In this document: positions 27,821 to 34,844 of the stretch, in pieces
Layout: the number at the start of each line of letters is the position of its first letter
How positions within the stretch are numbered: the first letter of the stretch is position 1
NCBI GenBank assembly: GCA_003635265.1
Contig: PYIZ01000010.1
Coordinates: 258,626 to 322,625 of the forward strand
DNA: 64,000 nt
Direction of reading: 5' to 3'
DNA from: Candidatus Poribacteria bacterium
Lineage (GTDB): Bacteria > Poribacteria > WGA-4E > PCPOR2b
Made by a program: the position numbers and the translations under genes
Notes under the pieces: model-generated
Databases searched by the model: none
The model's input: the letters and a program-made list of their open reading frames with translations, nothing else
What the model was told of the DNA's origin: nothing

Positions 27821-28943
27821 ACGAGTCATTATCGTCGGCGGCGGGGTCATCGGGCTCGGTATCGGCTGGCAGCTAGCAAAGGCAGGCTGCGCTGTTTCGA
27901 TCTATGAACGCGATCAAGCTGGACGCGCTGCGTCGTGGGCGGCAGCGGGCATGTTAGCACCACACGCGGAAGTTCATTTTGAGGAACGTGCCCTCCTCAG
28001 ATTGGGCGTTCAAAGTTGCCGAATGTACCCGGAGTGGGTTGTCGAGTTAGAATCCGATAGTCAGATGAGCGTCGGTTATCGGGCAGAGGGAACACTTATC
28101 GTCGGAGTAGATCGGGACGATGCACGAGAGTTGGGACACCTCTATGAGTCCCAACAACTCCTGGACCTGAAAGTGGAGTGGATTACCGGCGTAGAGGCTC
28201 GTGAGATAGAGCCACTGCTCTCCCCTAAAATCACCGCCGCCATTTGGAGTAGGGACGACCATCAGGTTGACAACCGAGCAATGGTTGATGCACTGATTCG
28301 GGCATATCGAAATGCGCACGGGATACTTCACGAAAATACTCCTGTTGAGAAAATTGAGGTCGTCAACGGAAAGGCAGAAGGGATTTGGGTTAAAGGTAAT
28401 TTAGAAGAAGCCGATGTCATTGTGCTAGCGGCGGGCTGCTGGTCGAACGATATTGACGGCTTGCCGAAAGCCGTGCAACCACCTGTCCGTCCGGTCAAAG
28501 GACAGATGCTCGCATTGCAGATGGAAGAAGGGATCGTTCTGCAAAAAGTTATCCGTGCACCACGTGCCAAGTATCCGACCGATGTTTATTTGGTCCCGAA
28601 AGATAACGGACGCTTGGTGATCGGTGCAACGAATGAAGAGATGGATTTCGACACACGCCTTACAGCGGGGGGCTTATTTGAACTCCTCAGAGGCACATGG
28701 GAAGCTGTTCCGGGCATATATGATCTTCCTGTTCTGGAGACATGGACCGGCTTGCGCCCCGGCAGTCGAGACAACGCACCGATTCTCGGCGAAACAAGCG
28801 TCGAAAATCTGATTATGGCAACCGGACACTACCGCAACGGCATTCTGCTCACCCCCGTCACCGCCCGTGAAATAGCTTCACTCATCTTAACAGGCGAAAA
28901 TTCAGAAACTATCGCACCTTTTCAACTGTCTCGATTTTCATAA
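27792..28943 (+). CDS. thiO: glycine oxidase (FAD-dependent), thiamine biosynthesis
   Basis: FAD fold VIIVGGGVIGLGIGWQLAKAG, DAO-family length, and context immediately upstream of thiS. Confidence 0.8.
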   Translation: MHIHNPRSNKRVIIVGGGVIGLGIGWQLAKAGCAVSIYERDQAGRAASWAAAGMLAPHAEVHFEERALLRLGVQSCRMYPEWVVELESDSQMSVGYRAEGTLIVGVDRDDARELGHLYESQQLLDLKVEWITGVEAREIEPLLSPKITAAIWSRDDHQVDNRAMVDALIRAYRNAHGILHENTPVEKIEVVNGKAEGIWVKGNLEEADVIVLAAGCWSNDIDGLPKAVQPPVRPVKGQMLALQMEEGIVLQKVIRAPRAKYPTDVYLVPKDNGRLVIGATNEEMDFDTRLTAGGLFELLRGTWEAVPGIYDLPVLETWTGLRPGSRDNAPILGETSVENLIMATGHYRNGILLTPVTAREIASLILTGENSETIAPFQLSRFS

Positions 28944-29190: not shown

Positions 29191-30054
29191 ATGAAAGCCT
29201 TGGAAAAGGGAAATCATCTGATAATCTGGGGGGATACCCTTGATGCTTTGTCGAGCAAAATTCCTGATAGCTCAGTAGATTTAATCTTTACAGATCCTCC
29301 CTACAACATTGGCAAAAACTTCAATGGCAGAAAGGATAAGTGGAGTTCTGAGGAGGCGTACCTCGAATGGTGCTACCAGTGGATTGATCTTTGTCTCCGT
29401 AAGTTAAAAGACAAAGGCAGCTTCTATCTCATGGCTGCCACTCAAAATATGCCCTATTTTGACATCTACCTTCGGGATAAAATCTGCATTCTTTCTCGTA
29501 TAATTTGGTCTTACGATAGTTCGGGGGTCCAAGCCAAGAAATATTACGGCTCTCTATATGAACCGATTCTTTTCTGCGTAAAAGATAGGCAGCAATACAC
29601 TTTTAACGCTGATGATATTCTCGTTGAGGCAAAGACAGGGGCAAAGCGTAAATTAATCGATTACCGAAAGCAGGTTCCCACACAATACAGTTCAAGAAAA
29701 GTGCCGGGGAATGTTTGGGAATTTCCGCGTGTCCGCTACAGAATGGAGGAGTACGAAGAACATCCAACTCAGAAACCCGTTGCATTGCTTGAACGAATTG
29801 TTCGGGCAAGTTCAAACCCCGGCGATCTCATCCTTGACCCCTTCGCTGGTACATTTACAACATGTTTTGTCGCGAAAAAATTGGGGCGTCAATCAATCGG
29901 AATAGAGATAGAGGAAGATTACGTCAAAATTGGGTTGAGAAGACTTCAAATAATGACACATTATAGAGGGGAAGAATTGAAACGAGAACCTCGCTCTTAT
30001 GAGGAACAGGCGAACCCAACCCAACAGACCCTCAAGTTATTCGAGGGAAACTAG
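29191..30054 (+). CDS. DNA methyltransferase, beta-class (DPPY; N6-adenine or N4-cytosine)
   Basis: Motif IV TDPPYNIG precedes motif I ILDPFAGTFTTCFVAKKLGR, which is the beta-class order. The gene is AT-rich. Confidence 0.85.
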   Translation: MKALEKGNHLIIWGDTLDALSSKIPDSSVDLIFTDPPYNIGKNFNGRKDKWSSEEAYLEWCYQWIDLCLRKLKDKGSFYLMAATQNMPYFDIYLRDKICILSRIIWSYDSSGVQAKKYYGSLYEPILFCVKDRQQYTFNADDILVEAKTGAKRKLIDYRKQVPTQYSSRKVPGNVWEFPRVRYRMEEYEEHPTQKPVALLERIVRASSNPGDLILDPFAGTFTTCFVAKKLGRQSIGIEIEEDYVKIGLRRLQIMTHYRGEELKREPRSYEEQANPTQQTLKLFEGN

Positions 30055-31173
30055 ATGGAACACGAATTTACGCAGCAAATTCATGTTGTTTTGCGCTCCG
30101 ATTTTGGCGAAGCAGCAGAAGATATTTTTGAGAAAAGCGAACTCTTGCAGTACCTCAATCTCAAAACCAGATCCGCCACGCGTGGATCAAAAGCAAGAGG
30201 TAGCTTTGCCAATCTTTACGCACTCTACGTGTTAATCGAAGATTACCTTAACCACGGATTTGATGAAAAAGGCAACTACTCAAATTATCAAGGGGCAGCA
30301 TTTACAGACTTATTTAAGCGTCAAAGAGAATTGCCTTTTGGTAATAAGCTGCAGAATCATGCGCTCAACCACCGCATGAACAGCGATTTTCGGAAGTATT
30401 TTCCACAAACCGAGTATATCCCAATTTTACGCGATGTTGAAACAAAGCGTTATTGGATCAATGAAAATCTCCTAAACTTTTCCGTTGCAGGCGATTCGCA
30501 CAATATTGCAAGATCTATTATCAGTATCGTAAATCGCTATATAGAGACGAAGCGGAGTGCATTTGAGGCATTTATTCAAACGTGCGAACGTTTGAAAAGC
30601 ATTAACGAAGAGAGTATAGAAAATGTAGAAGCATTTATTGAAAGCCTCCTCGAACCAAACGCAGATGCACGTATCTTCGAAATTGTCAGTTATGCCATCC
30701 TAAAGTATTACTATAGCAATCAAACCGTTTATTTCGGTTTTGATCTGGAGAGCGTAGAGGAAGAAAACCTCACACTCTATAAAACTGGTCGCACCAATGC
30801 CAATGATGGCGGTATAGACTTTGTTATGCGTCCATTGGGCAGATTTTTTCAAGTGACAGAAACTCTAGACGTAAGAAAATACTTTTTGGATATCGATAAA
30901 ATTGAACGCTATCCTATATCCTTTGTCATCAAATCCGAGGAATCTATTGATGTGCTCAGGCAAAGACTCCAAGCGGGAGCAGAAAAACAGTACCTTATAA
31001 CGGCTATAGTCAGGAAATACATGAATTGTGTTGAAGAAATCATCAATATTCCTGTTTTGAAAAATAGGTTTAATGAGGCGGTGCAGGAAGGCTATTTGCA
31101 GAGTATTCTCGATGAGGTGATTAAACAAAGTAAAGTCGAGTTTAACTATGAAGAGCCGGCTGATACCGTTTGA
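30055..31173 (+). CDS. putative type II restriction endonuclease partner of the methyltransferase
   Basis: The ATG directly abuts the methyltransferase TAG. A possible PD-(D/E)xK-like core is ARIFEIVSYAIL...NANDGGIDFVMRP...FQVTE. One sampled line is 33% GC. I cannot name a specific family. Confidence 0.5.
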   Translation: MEHEFTQQIHVVLRSDFGEAAEDIFEKSELLQYLNLKTRSATRGSKARGSFANLYALYVLIEDYLNHGFDEKGNYSNYQGAAFTDLFKRQRELPFGNKLQNHALNHRMNSDFRKYFPQTEYIPILRDVETKRYWINENLLNFSVAGDSHNIARSIISIVNRYIETKRSAFEAFIQTCERLKSINEESIENVEAFIESLLEPNADARIFEIVSYAILKYYYSNQTVYFGFDLESVEEENLTLYKTGRTNANDGGIDFVMRPLGRFFQVTETLDVRKYFLDIDKIERYPISFVIKSEESIDVLRQRLQAGAEKQYLITAIVRKYMNCVEEIINIPVLKNRFNEAVQEGYLQSILDEVIKQSKVEFNYEEPADTV

Positions 31174-32028: not shown

Positions 32029-32526
32029 ATGCCAGACGACCACACATCAGCCGAAGATCAACAAGTCGAAGCCGAAGGACAAACACCGGAAACAGAAACA
32101 TTAGCACAATTGCAAGAACTTGCCGAAAGTGGCAACCCCGCAGCCCAAAATGACCTCGGTTGGATGTATCAAAACGGTAGGGGTGTAGTGCAAGATGACA
32201 GAGAGGCAATTAAGTGGTATCGAAAAGCTGCCGAACAAGATTATGCCATAGCCCAAGACAACCTCGGTTGGATGTATCAACACGGCAGAGGTGTCCCGCA
32301 AGACGATGAGAAAGCAGTTAAATGGTATCGAAAAGCCGCTGAGGATGGCAATCTTGCAAAAGCTCAAGACAACCTTGGTTGGATGTACCAACATGGCAGA
32401 GGTGTCCCGCAAGACGATGTAGAGGCGGTCAAATGGTTTCGCAAAGCTGCTGAAGGTGGTTATTCCGCGGCCCAAGCTAATCTTGACTGGATGTATCAAA
32501 ATGGTAGGGGCGTTGAGCAGGTATAG
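32029..32526 (+). CDS. Sel1-like repeat (SLR) protein
   Basis: Four tandem units of AQxNLGWMYQxGRGVPQDDxxAVKWYRKAAExG. Confidence 0.85.
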   Translation: MPDDHTSAEDQQVEAEGQTPETETLAQLQELAESGNPAAQNDLGWMYQNGRGVVQDDREAIKWYRKAAEQDYAIAQDNLGWMYQHGRGVPQDDEKAVKWYRKAAEDGNLAKAQDNLGWMYQHGRGVPQDDVEAVKWFRKAAEGGYSAAQANLDWMYQNGRGVEQV

Positions 32527-32527
32527 A

Positions 32528-32608
32528 TTAATTCACGCCCAACCTACTCCCACTCCCGAATATCCACAAAATGCCCAGCCAGCGCAGTCCCCGCAGCCAT
32601 CTGCAATT
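32528..32608 (-). pseudogene. duplicated remnant of the leuC 3' end (last ~20 codons plus stop and 16 nt downstream)
   Basis: About 85% nucleotide identity to 33427-33506. On the minus strand it translates to [19 protein letters not shown], versus authentic Leu[20 protein letters not shown]. Confidence 0.7.
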
Positions 32609-32680
32609 GGAGGTAATTATACTTGCCCAGATGTCGGTGTATTGCGTCTGTTCAATAATAGAGTACCCTTCAGCTTCCAG

Positions 32681-32836
32681 TTATGCCTTTTTACCGCGTA
32701 ATTTCACCTTTCGCACATAATCTGCCCCGCGGTCAAAAGACTGAGACACCAAATCTGCTGTCAATCCTTCGGTAAGAAAAGCACTCACGGCAACAACACT
32801 ATCAAGGACGACATGCAGTTTTCTTCTGTTTATCAT
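32681..32836 (-). pseudogene. truncated PIN-like toxin fragment (51 codons)
   Basis: MINRRKLHVVLDSVVAVSAFLTEG... resembles the first strand/helix of PIN-family toxins, including the first acidic residue. It stops after 51 aa and lies directly downstream of an AbrB-type antitoxin gene. Confidence 0.3.
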
Positions 32837-33104
32837 ATTCTTCTTGTCGGAGCTCAGCAACTGCGCGTTCAACATCGTGATAGACTTCTTCTTCACTGAT
32901 ACCCCTATTTTGTTCGTGGACGCTGTGCATCAGTTGCAGAAGTTTCTCCCAGTCTTCCGATGCCACCAGCTTTCTGGGCGTAATCACGACGCAATCACCT
33001 TCAATTCGTGCATCTACGACATCACCTTTTTTAAGCCCTAAATTCTCTCGGATTGATTTAGGAATGGTTATCTGTCCATGTTCGAGAATCTTCGCAATTG
33101 CCAT
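32802..33104 (-). CDS. AbrB/MazE/SpoVT-family antitoxin-like DNA-binding protein
   Basis: N-terminal GQITIPKSIRENLGLKKGDVVDARIEGDCVVITP is a classical SpoVT-AbrB swapped-hairpin motif. Confidence 0.7.
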   Translation of the reverse strand: MAIAKILEHGQITIPKSIRENLGLKKGDVVDARIEGDCVVITPRKLVASEDWEKLLQLMHSVHEQNRGISEEEVYHDVERAVAELRQEEYDKQKKTACRP

Positions 33105-33122
33105 ACTATTACCCCTTTTCGT

Positions 33123-33196
33123 ACGTAAGTCCTGTAGTTCGGCGATTCATCGCCATAGAATACCGTTTCCCACGCCCGATGAATCGGGCAACTACA
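33123..33196. repeat. TGTAG...CTACA palindromic element preceded by CGTAAGTCC
   Basis: The 64-nt core at 33133-33196 is TGTAGTTCGGCGATTCATCGCC...GCCCGATGAATCGGGCAACTACA. It has the same hairpins as 20584-20647 in the opposite order. Confidence 0.65.
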
Positions 33197-33313
33197 ATAT
33201 TCATCGGGATCCTTAATAAGTTGGGACTAGTCTCGATTGCTAGCCCGCCGTGATCCAGCCAATAATCCGTGCAATCTGCGGTATCCGTTTAATCCGCGAT
33301 TCAGACAAATGGC

Positions 33314-33384
33314 ACATGTCGCCCCTCTGGGGCTTGGAAGGAGGGACCTATTGCCCGGCTATAGACATATCGCCCCTCTGGGGC
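33314..33384 (+). repeat. paired 20-nt hairpin motif (51-nt spacing)
   Basis: ACATGTCGCCCCTCTGGGGC at 33314-33333 and ACATATCGCCCCTCTGGGGC at 33365-33384. This is the counterpart of 4667-4737. Confidence 0.55.
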
Positions 33385-33440
33385 TAAATGGATCGATGCA
33401 CAGGCTTGATGTATTCAGATGTAGTTGAATTCACCTCAAC

Positions 33441-34844
33441 CTACTTCCACTTCCGAATATCGACAAAATGCCCAGCAATCGCGGCACCCGCAGCCATTTG
33501 CGGACTGACAAGATGCGTCCGTCCACCCTTACCCTGTCTGCCCTCAAAGTTCCGATTCGACGTGCTAGCACACCGCTCACCCGGCATCAGGATATCCGGA
33601 TTCATACCGAGACACATACTACAGCCAGACTCACGCCACTCAAATCCCGCTGCACGGAAAATCTCGTCCAAACCTTCCGCCTCCGCCTGTCGCTTGACCG
33701 CCTGTGATCCCGGCACAACGAGCGCGTTCACCGTCGGAGCAACCTTGCGTCCCTTGGCAATCTCAGCAGCCACGCGCAGATCGTCAATTCGAGAATTGGT
33801 ACAACTCCCGATGAACACCTTATCGATCTGAATTTCCTCAATCGGCGTCAGTGGCTTCAGGTCCATATATTCTAATGCGTGTTCTGCTGCCTGTTTCTCA
33901 TCTTGGGTCGGCATCTTATCCGGATCCGGCACCTGTCCGGTTACCTCAGTCACCATCCCCGGATTCGTCCCCCACGTCACTTGAGGTACCAGCGTCGCAG
34001 CATCAATGGCAATTGACTTATCGTAGACCGCCCCCTCATCCGTCGGTAACTGTTTCCACTTTTCAACCGCCTGATCAAACGCCTCACCCTGTGGACAAAA
34101 ATCACGTCCCGCGAGATATTCGTAAGTCTTATCATCAGGCGCAATCATGCCAGCACGCGCACCCGCTTCAATGGACATATTGCAGACCGTCATCCGCTCC
34201 TCAACGCTCAACGCCCGAATGGCAGATCCAGTGTATTCGACCACTGTGCCCGTGCCCCCAGCGGTCCCGATCCTGCCGATAATCCCCAGAATAATGTCCT
34301 TTGCGGTAACACCACGCCCCAATTTCCCATCAACCTCAATCTTGAAGGTCTGCGGACGCTGCTGCAAAAGGCACTGGGTCGCCAATACATGCTCCACCTC
34401 ACTGGTCCCAATACCGATGGCAAGGGCACCCAACGCCCCATGCGTTGAAGTATGGCTGTCCCCACAAACGATCGTCTTCCCCGGTTGCGTGATACCGAGC
34501 TCAGGTCCAATCACATGCACGATGCCCTGATTGGGGCTATGAAGGTCATACAACGTGATGCCAGTCTCTTCACAATTCTGTGCCAATACCTCCATCTGCT
34601 TGGAGGCAATCTCATCCAGGATCGGGAGGGTTCGATCGGTCGTCGGCACATTGTGATCCATCGTTGCAAAAGTCAGATCTGGGCGGCGCACCTTCCGCCC
34701 CGCGAGCCGGAGCCCTTCAAACGCCTGTGCAGAGGTAATTTCGTGAACGAGATGTGTATCAATATAGAGTATCGTTGTTTCGCCCGGTATTTCGTGGACG
34801 ATGTGTGCATCCCAAATCTTTTCAAACATCGTTTTCGGTGTCAT
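33441..34844 (-). CDS. leuC: 3-isopropylmalate dehydratase large subunit
   Basis: 467 aa, aconitase family. MFEKIWDAH..., VCGDSHT and GSCTNSR cluster-ligand motifs are present. No leuD is adjacent. Confidence 0.9.

Follow-up and report, generated by a model that had tools for sequence, protein, structure and literature searches.

The leuC gene of a Candidatus Poribacteria genome is followed by a short stretch of DNA bounded by two direct repeats of the leuC terminus. This locus raises the question whether such a segment is what remains of an integrative element, as an earlier note on this DNA had proposed, or whether it reached its position by some other route. The genome (referred to here as G000) is that of a sponge symbiont and it is available as a MAG of 5.3 Mb (53 contigs, 88%-complete, 4% contamination); the window, viz. 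the whole stretch of DNA that was analysed, is 64,000 nucleotides long. The observation of a repeat-bounded insert behind leuC is real. Based on the evidence described below, this 0.8-kb insert is a patchwork of foreign gene fragments, which was most likely placed behind leuC, and later shuffled between species, via ordinary recombination, and is most likely not the scar of an integrase-bearing element. The specific form of this reading that we consider probable, if not strongly so, is an "insertion with long target duplication" of an addiction-module remnant, which was made by one illegitimate joint and spread by homologous recombination via the leuC end.

The direct repeat and the empty site

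The leuC gene (3-isopropylmalate dehydratase large subunit; 33441..34844, minus strand) is intact and encodes a protein of 467 aa (Aconitase Pfam, E 3e-183), whose orthologues show 93-97% aa identity across all congeners. Convergent with leuC is a plus-strand gene for a Sel1-repeat protein of 165 aa (32029..32526; PF08238, E 7e-43), which serves as the marker of the native right-hand flank. In the DNA extending from one of these genes to the other, a repeat search of the window identified a direct repeat of 65 nt with 86% identity (32540-32604 vs 33437-33501), and BLASTN of the region 32450-33560 against the whole assembly gave an alignment of 87 columns (32518-32604 vs 33416-33501; 82.8%, one gap, E 7e-17). 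Only two copies of the repeat were found by BLASTN in the 5.3-Mb assembly, and no third one. The direct repeats of about 85% identity that were reported in the earlier note (32528-32608 and 33427-33506) are thus confirmed by both searches.

The proximal copy of the repeat (33416..33501, minus strand) consists of the last 19 codons of leuC with the stop (33441-33500), a spacer of 16 nt (33425-33440) and 9 nt matching the Sel1 end (33416-33424). This copy is the true leuC 3' end, and its spacer and Sel1-end part are collinear with the empty-site sequence of relatives. The distal copy (32518..32604, minus strand) contains a displaced leuC end (leuC'; 19 codons with the stop, 32544-32603), which is followed by a spacer of 17 nt (32527-32543) and an overlap with the true Sel1 end (32518-32526). 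This copy runs directly into the Sel1 gene, just as in the empty-site relatives, and it translates in frame as the leuC end, but its leuC piece is a displaced, non-functional copy. The assignment of the second copy as the authentic leuC terminus, and of the first as a copy that can still be translated in frame, therefore holds. The match had further been described as running 16 nt beyond the stop; the extension itself is borne out, but its length is ~25 nt, as it covers the 16/17-nt spacer and also, in reverse complement, the Sel1 stop with the two codons before it (CAGGTATAG vs CAGATGTAG). The abrupt end of similarity at both inner edges is also seen in our alignment. The insert between the two copies is 811 nt long, and the longest identical run shared by them is 14 nt (GCTGGGCATTTTGT). 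Nine differences are present in their leuC part, at three of which both states occur in other species. Private changes number ~3 in each copy, and those in the distal copy include two replacements at conserved residues. The identity of the repeats (83-86%) equals the inter-species identity of leuC (85-91%).

Inspection of the leuC downstream regions of relatives, which had been suggested as a check, revealed the empty site, in which the stops of leuC and Sel1 are separated by 16-17 nt, in four genomes (G001, G002, G008 and G017). The last of these had the first appearance of a third duplication, but this was rejected, as its leuC is broken after codon 438 by a simple insertion of ~355 bp. The gap separating leuC from the Sel1 gene (Sel1_165) varies from 16 nt to ~6 kb across the genus, in which the Sel1-thiG-thiS synteny is kept. 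The insertion is thus supported to lie between leuC and the convergent Sel1 gene, and this location is a hypervariable gap between two convergent genes.

In a 53-contig, 88%-complete MAG with 4% contamination, an apparent duplication can also result from the stitching together of two strains or haplotypes during assembly. However, both flanks of the insert are syntenic with those in relatives, the joints lack any sequence overlap that an assembler could have bridged, and the cassette and its junction recur in two independent single-contig chromosomes (viz. G018 and G015). The junctions in G000 rest on the assembly and on these two chromosomes. An assembly artefact is very improbable.

Composition of the insert

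The insert is a mosaic made up of the Sel1' end, two MITEs, an intact AbrB gene, 32 codons of a PIN gene and ~43 internal codons of a DNA methylase (Mod) gene. One of the two MITEs is a paired-hairpin element with its left flank (33313..33412; hairpin copies at 33314-33334 and 33365-33385), which belongs to a multi-copy MITE/REP-like family with many genomic copies and which, together with the same flank, is also found ~150 nt behind leuC in G015 (90% over 102 nt). The other, a MITE-like TGTAG...CTACA inverted-repeat element with 20-nt arms (33133..33196), lies just upstream of the AbrB ribosome-binding site; it too has multiple genomic copies, and it is missing from the corresponding place in G018. 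The AbrB/MazE-fold antitoxin gene (32802..33104, minus strand; 100 aa; PF04014, E 2e-9) is intact in G000, where it is now an orphan. The AbrB sequence of G000 is 74-98% identical to the antitoxins of AbrB-PIN pairs from 32 Poribacteria loci, and the copy of the gene in G018, differing from it at 6/303 nt, contains an in-frame TAA. The AbrB gene, the TGTAG...CTACA element and the paired hairpin motif, all of which the earlier note had placed between the repeats, are therefore present. Neither Rfam searches (E up to 1) nor scans for promoters and terminators yielded anything of use in this region.

The 51-codon PIN-like stub that was reported from the same region is PIN-derived only over its first ~32 codons, and the rest of it is a fragment of a DNA methylase gene. 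The PIN part (PIN'; 32741..32836, minus strand) represents the beginning of a PIN_3 toxin gene, whose start and the AbrB 3' end overlap in the manner of intact pairs. Its identity to the AbrB-3'/PIN-5' region in intact cassettes reaches 95% at the nt level, and the homology ends after ...GATTTGGTGTCTCAGT. The methylase part (Mod'; 32605..32737, minus strand) comprises ~43 codons from the interior of a Type III-like N6/N4 DNA methylase gene, contains a stop and a 1-nt deletion, and has PIN' joined to it on its upstream side and leuC codon 449 on its downstream side. Its reading is ...FxSGADYVRKVxLRGKK..EAEGHSxIEQTQYTDIWANDxYLQ. Compared with the corresponding part of 14 full-length Mod genes which follow AbrB-PIN in other Poribacteria, it is 75-81% identical at the nt level, and its identity to the Mod gene of the congener G003 is 90%. 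The stub ORF of 71 aa is without a Pfam match. As judged from these alignments, the "PIN stub" is a chimera of PIN and methylase across a deletion joint, and it offers a caution for annotators that a short "PIN-like" ORF can be made up of fragments from two unrelated genes. The toxin gene is dead, and due to the reduction of the toxin to 32 codons, the pair cannot act as an addiction module. Thus, from a two-gene TA pair only the antitoxin is intact in the G000 insert, with the toxin homology stopping at ~32 codons, and from a pair of R and M homologues the insert holds only the ~43-codon Mod fragment, without Res.

In other Poribacteria, the intact gene order Res(ResIII)-AbrB-PIN_3-Mod(N6_N4_Mtase) is found at ~11/32 loci. 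At one of the loci (L054), the PIN partner is intact (PF13470 PIN_3, E 3e-14) and the Mod gene is identified by PF01555 (E 5e-53). No Res or Mod gene of the Res-AbrB-PIN-Mod kind was found in G000. An element of ~130 nt, which recurs behind AbrB-PIN in up to three copies per locus, was also considered as an integron attC cassette; this was rejected, as the copies are coding sequence in full-length tandem Mod genes (PF01555). No present function is demonstrable for the insert, and at most AbrB persists in it as an orphan antitoxin or regulator. As a side possibility, the orphan AbrB may have been kept as an anti-addiction factor against incoming Res-AbrB-PIN-Mod units.

The possibility of an integrase-mediated insertion

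The interpretation put forward in the earlier note is that the insert is the reduced scar of an integrative element. Under this model, an element with a tyrosine or serine integrase would have targeted the leuC 3' end, bringing with it a surrogate gene end, and subsequent deletions of the integrase and most of the cargo would have left only attL and attR and the 0.8 kb between them. Insertions of this geometry are made by e14 and phage 21, which show prophage-type integration into the icd 3' end of E. coli with a surrogate gene end. Similar to these cases, direct repeats of a gene 3' end flank foreign DNA in G000, the identical 14-nt block present in both copies could be a core, and the cargo is clearly truncated, from which it follows that larger deletions did occur. 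Further, relatives have an empty site that corresponds to one repeat copy, although this feature is common to the rival classes of explanation.

However, in a PF00589 search for tyrosine recombinases, which covered G000, 11 congeners and 7 genomes of the same order, only two were found in G000, both on contigs other than that of leuC (C51 and C17), those of the 11 congeners were all at least hundreds of kb away from leuC, and no recombinase is encoded by the ORFs of the insert. The integrases associated with leuC-end repeats, for which a search had been suggested, were thus not found near leuC in G000 or in these congeners. Among the 32 related AbrB loci, only the one in G018 adjoins leuC and most are without flanking repeats; around the other 31 no flanking direct repeats of the kind present in G000 were found, save for tandem Mod paralogues in L049, and no AbrB relatives were found on viral contigs. 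The borders of the insert present additional difficulties. The repeats, which are 83% identical, have as their inner borders the Mod fragment on the distal side and chromosomal spacer and Sel1 3' sequence on the proximal side. Because the proximal copy includes this spacer and the end of the neighbouring gene, the incoming DNA was chromosomal DNA of a relative and not a surrogate gene end evolved by a phage. On the distal side, where the border is an internal methylase fragment, a deletion would need to have stopped exactly at the att edge. Lastly, the cassette, which is dead and lacks an integrase, nevertheless precedes three different flanks (see below). Microhomology at the PIN'/Mod' and Mod'/leuC' joints is at most 1-2 nt, and by their sequence features these are illegitimate joints and not att borders. 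Due to these observations, the attL/attR interpretation is not upheld, and we regard the integration of such an element as improbable.

leuD and a second insert in the same genome

The earlier note had also remarked that leuD is missing from its usual place downstream of leuC. However, leuD is present on contig C52 of G000. In each of the 11 congeners in which this gene was looked for, it is likewise not linked to leuC, whereas the two genes are adjacent in other families of the same order. The leuC/leuD split is thus genus-wide and unrelated to the insertion. Upstream of leuD, a second TA cassette is present, consisting of genes which, by reading of their sequences, we take to be DUF433-like and DUF5615-like. 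This cassette has on its flanks a diverged duplication of ~240 nt, which includes the end of the upstream gene and the intergenic region, and in relatives both the empty site and a TA-only arrangement are seen at this place. The three repeat pairs of this kind in G000 each have an identity of 80-85%, and a young pair was not seen among them.

Distribution of the junction and proposed history

The Mod'|leuC' junction is present in three species (viz. G000, G018 and G015), in which it is 91-93% identical, and three unrelated flanks follow leuC' in them; a metagenome scan for this junction gave 0 matches. The occurrence of one junction before three flanks is best explained by homologous exchange through the leuC' fragment. 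In G018, the 300 nt of flank compared after leuC' show 100% identity to the sequence that natively follows leuC in G005, whereas the leuC genes of these two genomes are only 91% identical. Further, the cassettes of G000 and G018 differ by 2% in AbrB and by 6.6% in the pseudogene part, while at four-fold sites the same genomes differ by 36.6% in leuC and by 24.6% in thiG; the cassette is far younger than the species split. The chromosomal spacer and Sel1 3' sequence on the proximal copy extends for 25 nt in G000 and for 89 nt in G018, where the breakpoint is the same as in G015. Because the 25-nt flank is only 64% identical between G000 and G018, in contrast to 95-98% for the cassette interior, at least two events are needed. 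Sliding windows and informative sites gave no clear mosaic breakpoint within leuC, so that the left-hand homologous crossover is not mappable. The leuC tree places G000, G015 and G018 together with three genomes that lack the cassette (G001, G005 and G007) in a single subclade of poor resolution, a placement that fits ancestry as well as transfer.

These results also bear on a possible origin of the duplication in situ, by which a staggered break or a replication template switch at the leuC/Sel1 junction would have captured the foreign R-M/TA fragment and, in the same step, duplicated ~90-150 nt of the target, with the two copies having since diverged to 83%. A mechanism of this kind, as yet unexplained, has been discussed for R-M units by Kobayashi's group. 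The architecture of the locus fits the published class of insertions, in which double-strand breaks by the R-M unit itself are suspected to play a part, the insert comes from an R-M-linked addiction module, and the presence of ~3 private substitutions in each copy, with two replacements at conserved residues in the distal one, is as expected of a decaying copy. However, the published repeats are near-identical (44/46 to 417/423; PMC2853133), whereas the three pairs in G000, with no young example among them, are all at the inter-species distance, and some of the positions at which the copies differ are polymorphic within the genus as well. A long divergence within one lineage also fits poorly with a cassette that is far younger than the species split. 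Based on these considerations, an in-situ duplication seems rather unlikely to us.

Under the history that we favour, DNA of a related lineage, in which leuC-spacer-Sel1'-...-AbrB-PIN'-Mod' was already assembled, would have entered a genome with the plain leuC/Sel1 arrangement. On the left side, the incoming DNA would have recombined by homology in or near the leuC end, and on the right side its broken end inside Mod would have become attached to leuC codon 449 by an illegitimate joint. Such a product, in which leuC is intact and the recipient's own last 60 nt of leuC and the spacer are left as a direct repeat, is expected from either of two routes, viz. homology-facilitated illegitimate recombination and a Campbell-type single crossover of a self-ligated fragment. 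The leuC' fragment would then have acted as a second homology anchor, through which flank alleles or the cassette were exchanged between species by homologous recombination, and the MITE insertions and small deletions would have come afterwards. DNA uptake is plausible, since full-length ComEC is present in 18/18 congeners searched; ComEC was not found in the 88%-complete assembly of G000, and this gap is taken as assembly incompleteness. In experiments, homology-facilitated illegitimate recombination typically shows microhomology of 3-8 nt, and deletion is its usual outcome. Among the points that speak against the favoured history are that neither joint has microhomology of 3-8 nt, and that the two copies, with ~3 private changes each, could have been identical at birth and have diverged since.

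We tentatively suggest, further, that the displaced 60-nt leuC end may be a portable homology arm, which would permit recA loop-out of the cassette, its re-entry into any related genome at leuC by a single crossover, or a swap of the flank behind it. If this should be true, then cassettes would persist and move among co-resident species of sponge symbionts without a mobility gene, the 80-85% identity of the three repeat pairs would be the signature of heterospecific arms, and a mechanism would be supplied for the unexplained class of insertions with long target duplication.

Comparison with known systems

The resemblance to e14 and phage 21 at icd is that foreign DNA is bounded by direct repeats of the 3' end of a housekeeping gene and that this gene is kept intact by the inner copy. 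Unlike these elements, however, the insert has no integrase or defined att core, its repeat includes downstream chromosomal sequence, its inner border is an internal gene fragment, and it is too small and fragmentary for autonomy. The insert likewise shares with VapBC-like type II pairs (AbrB/MazE + PIN_3) an intact antitoxin gene, which has a ribosome-binding site and overlaps the toxin start in the customary way, and its close relatives are complete pairs. It differs from them in that the toxin is down to 32 codons and that the antitoxin gene of G018 is no longer intact either.

Homology-facilitated illegitimate recombination (de Vries and Wackernagel 2002; Prudhomme et al. 2002), as defined and reviewed in PMC3240628, has been invoked for displaced gene ends and orphan immunity genes (PMC5361080). 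Similar features at this locus are that one side lies in a conserved gene and the other is a non-homologous joint, that foreign DNA is found beside a housekeeping gene with a displaced 3' remnant and an orphan protective gene, and that ComEC is present in the genus. However, the homologous crossover is not located, the joints are without clear microhomology, and the outcome is a duplication in place of the deletion that is usual in experiments.

Insertions of R-M units with long target duplication, which have repeats of >30 bp, are without mobility genes and correspond to an empty site in relatives, have been described by Furuta, Abe and Kobayashi (2010, NAR, PMC2853133). The class, for which Nobusato et al. 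2000 is cited there, has no established mechanism. The present case agrees with this class in that a short insert (<20 kb; here 811 nt) is found where relatives have an empty site, in that the duplication exceeds 30 bp (86-87 nt), well above the length of target duplications made by transposons, and both of its copies align to a single target, in that transposase and integrase genes are lacking and the repeat overlaps a gene 3' end, and in that the cargo derives from a module of the post-segregational-killing type (R-M with an embedded TA). It differs from the class in its cargo, which is an antitoxin gene with toxin and methylase fragments and not a full R-M pair, in the identity of its repeats (83% vs 93-100%), and in the occurrence of the same junction before three flanks in three species, indicating homologous exchange via the repeat. 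The insert is thus a remnant or variant of the long-target-duplication class and not a full member of it, and it reveals no new system or function. It shows how uncultured sponge symbionts acquire and trade small pieces of defence/addiction DNA beside essential genes without integrases or transposases, and it provides a multi-species natural example of these poorly understood insertions, in which the junction is seen in three contexts, the empty site is known and the genome contains a second case.

Duplication of the leuC end and its empty site

The window is C10:258626-322625 of the source genome (G000), a MAG of 5.3 Mb in 53 contigs. In this window leuC encodes 467 aa on the minus strand (33441-34844; Aconitase, E 3e-183) and is convergent with a Sel1-repeat gene of 165 aa (Sel1_165; 32029-32526), which adjoins the distal of two direct repeats. 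A direct-repeat search matched 32540-32604 with 33437-33501 at 86% identity, and BLASTN against the whole assembly widened the pair to 32518-32604 versus 33416-33501 (87 columns, 82.8%, E 7e-17) and found no third copy. The direct repeats of the leuC end reported in the earlier note are thus real and slightly larger than first described. In each copy, the final 19 codons of leuC with their stop are followed by a spacer of 16/17 nt and then by 9 nt from the end of the convergent Sel1 gene; the distal copy is continuous with the real Sel1 gene, the proximal copy with the real leuC.

leuC was found in G000 and 30 relatives, and about 9 kb behind it was taken from 16 of the 18 congeners (G001-G018), with shorter stretches ending at contig ends in G006 (6.2 kb) and G016 (0.8 kb). 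In the congeners compared, the block Sel1_165-thiG-(R-M, restriction-modification)-thiS is syntenic. Comparison of these regions, which the earlier note had proposed, revealed an empty site in four congeners (viz. G001, G002, G008 and G017), where 16-17 nt separate the stops of leuC and Sel1_165, and merging of the two G000 repeats gives exactly this layout. In G000 the two stops lie 0.9 kb apart, against 1.9-6 kb in the other congeners, and further Sel1-like genes make up most of the added DNA. Between thiS and thiG, a methylase and a 372-aa gene (29191-31173) are variable across the genus: both are found in G000, G002, G008, G014 and G018, the methylase without the 372-aa gene in G001, G004, G005, G009 and G011-G013, only a partial methylase in G003, and neither in G007, G010 and G017. 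In G017 (locus L021 2815-3173), leuC is broken after codon 438 by an insertion of ~355 bp, which brings a stop and lacks a target duplication; this leuC is either a pseudogene or misassembled.

Composition of the insert

From leuC towards Sel1, two repeat elements follow the proximal repeat, first paired hairpins and then TGTAG...CTACA; next come the intact gene of an AbrB/MazE-fold antitoxin (PF04014) and what had been described as a 51-codon PIN stub. The paired GCCCCTCTGGGGC hairpins, 51 nt apart (33313-33389), and the TGTAG...CTACA inverted repeat (33133-33196) both represent multi-copy MITE/REP-like families with copies on many other contigs, dispersed and sometimes clustered (e.g. C53:90952-91330); in G000 both sit in the interval from the proximal repeat to AbrB, and the G018 copy has neither. 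When 32850-32605 was compared by BLASTN with 32 Poribacteria loci encoding relatives of the antitoxin, 32849-32740 proved to comprise the 3' end of AbrB and the ~32 initial codons of PIN, with up to 95% identity to intact pairs, and 32737-32605 matched, at 75-81%, an internal part of the full-length genes that come directly after intact AbrB-PIN pairs. By alignment and ORFs, the latter segment corresponds to residues ~85-128 of a DNA methylase of 570-630 aa (PF01555, E 5e-53). Hence, the stub is PIN-like over its first ~32 codons, but its remainder is a methylase fragment (Mod'). The joint of PIN' to Mod', and that of Mod' to the displaced leuC end (leuC'; …CCTCCAATT joined to GCAGATGG, at leuC codon 449), show microhomology of at most 1-2 nt. 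Since the chimeric PIN'-Mod' ORF stops earlier in G018 than in G000, it does not represent a conserved gene. The toxin gene is dead, and its antitoxin is left as an orphan.

About 11 of the 32 loci contain a Type III-like R-M unit into which a toxin-antitoxin (TA) pair is embedded, in the order Res (a ResIII helicase of ~890 aa), small ORF, AbrB, PIN_3, Mod. No Res or Mod of such a unit was found elsewhere in G000; a Res-Mod unit does occur in G003, and the Mod' fragment of G000 shares 90% identity with its Mod. AbrB-PIN_3 lies between res (~890 aa) and mod (~600 aa) in L049, L054, L057, L058, L069, L071, L072 and L074. In the units of other Poribacteria the start of mod overlaps with the stop of PIN; mod is present as three tandem paralogues (60-87% identical) in L072 and L049, and several loci have kept AbrB alone.

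The earlier note interpreted this region as the attL/attR scar of an integrative element. However, a search for tyrosine recombinases (PF00589) in G000, 11 congeners and 7 same-order genomes revealed two in G000, on contigs C51 and C17, and none within hundreds of kb of leuC in the 11 congeners. Further, the insert ORFs encode no recombinase, viral contigs contain no relative of its AbrB, and the repeat takes in chromosomal sequence past leuC. With no recombinase in the insert, no tyrosine recombinase near leuC in these genomes, and an inner repeat border that is the middle of a methylase gene, this interpretation is improbable and lacks positive support, although all diagnostic parts could since have been deleted. 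The Mod'-leuC' junction had no match in a metagenome scan.

The cassette in other species

In the complete chromosome of G018, AbrB-PIN'-Mod'-leuC' is present behind leuC with 95% identity over 582 nt. Behind the proximal leuC end of G018 come 89 nt made up of spacer and the 3' part of Sel1, cut at the same point as in G015, and its distal leuC' has the stop TAA and then a flank differing from that of G000. Over 300 nt this flank matches, at 100% identity, the one native to G005 behind leuC, and the two species (loci L080 and L076) share 2.9 kb at 97% over Sel1_165-thiG, whereas their leuC genes are only 91% identical, which, judging from these identities, indicates very recent inter-species recombination downstream of leuC. 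In G015, the Mod'-leuC' junction (92-93% identical) lies 430 kb from its own leuC (chromosome 1801923-1802031 and 2232510; loci L115, L008 and L079), with a third flank behind leuC' that is 89% similar to that of G011, and the spacer, Sel1' fragment and G000-type hairpin element are all kept at leuC. A large rearrangement evidently split this cassette, the break appearing to lie inside it. The G015 junction adjoins a TGTAG-type repeat, and the leuC of G015 no longer has the Sel1-thiG neighbourhood. AbrB shows 6 differences in 303 nt between G000 and G018, and the pseudogene part diverges by 6.6%, far less than the four-fold degenerate sites of leuC (36.6%) and thiG (24.6%); on these counts, the cassette has apparently passed between species well after their divergence. 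Recombination has repeatedly had its border in the 60-nt leuC' fragment.

Similar inserts and leuD

A genome-wide self-BLAST of G000 for low-copy direct repeats detected, besides the leuC pair, a similar structure directly upstream of leuD, outside the window (C52:126901-128400; locus L001 1-1500). Here a gene with a dockerin-like C-terminus is followed by an intergenic region with a TGnTATAAT-like motif, a TA pair that looks DUF433-like (antitoxin) and DUF5615/Mut7-C-like (toxin), a ~200-nt copy of the upstream gene 3' end with the same motif, and leuD. The duplication is diverged (87 nt at 80% by BLAST, ~240 nt overall); G002-G005 have the empty site, and G009 has the TA pair without duplication. 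A third candidate, on C44 and likewise outside the window, is a 241-nt direct repeat at 85% (27822-28061 and 33751-33991) in which the duplicated sequence is the 3' end of a gene for 363 aa, by its look a putative GNAT-type acetyltransferase. It flanks 5.7 kb that reads as encoding an ECF sigma factor, a putative anti-sigma factor and two large proteins, and a pair just outside the distal copy looks like BrnT/BrnA. All three repeat pairs are 80-85% identical. As the earlier note stated, leuD is not behind leuC; however, it is intact on C52 and unlinked from leuC in 11 of the 11 congeners searched, and its absence there is unrelated to the insert. In other families of the order leuD directly follows leuC.

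Mechanism and comparison with known systems

The repeat and the insertion are real, and the region is a patchwork made by recombination, of a kind already described. An illegitimate joint must have formed at least once, at Mod'-leuC', and the opposite side would require homology in leuC only; one homologous and one illegitimate side characterize products of homology-facilitated illegitimate recombination (PMC3240628, PMC5361080). Single-crossover integration of a self-ligated fragment would give the same product. Full-length ComEC is present in 18 of the 18 congeners searched, the identity between the repeat copies (83-86%) corresponds to that of leuC between species (85-91%), and 3 of 9 differences in their leuC part are polymorphisms common to other species; all these are consistent with a scenario in which DNA of related species was taken up and recombined. 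In-situ duplication followed by divergence of the copies is a serious rival, and a homologous crossover in leuC was sought but not located. The region, of modest interest, is a natural example that spans several species and hints at a homology-based mechanism. The closest described class is the "insertion with long target duplication" of R-M units (Furuta, Abe and Kobayashi, PMC2853133). Unlike in that class, the G000 insert keeps only a fragment of Mod, and thus departs from one of its criteria, but it shares with it the empty site in relatives, two repeats of >30 bp, each of which aligns with the target, and the lack of mobility genes.
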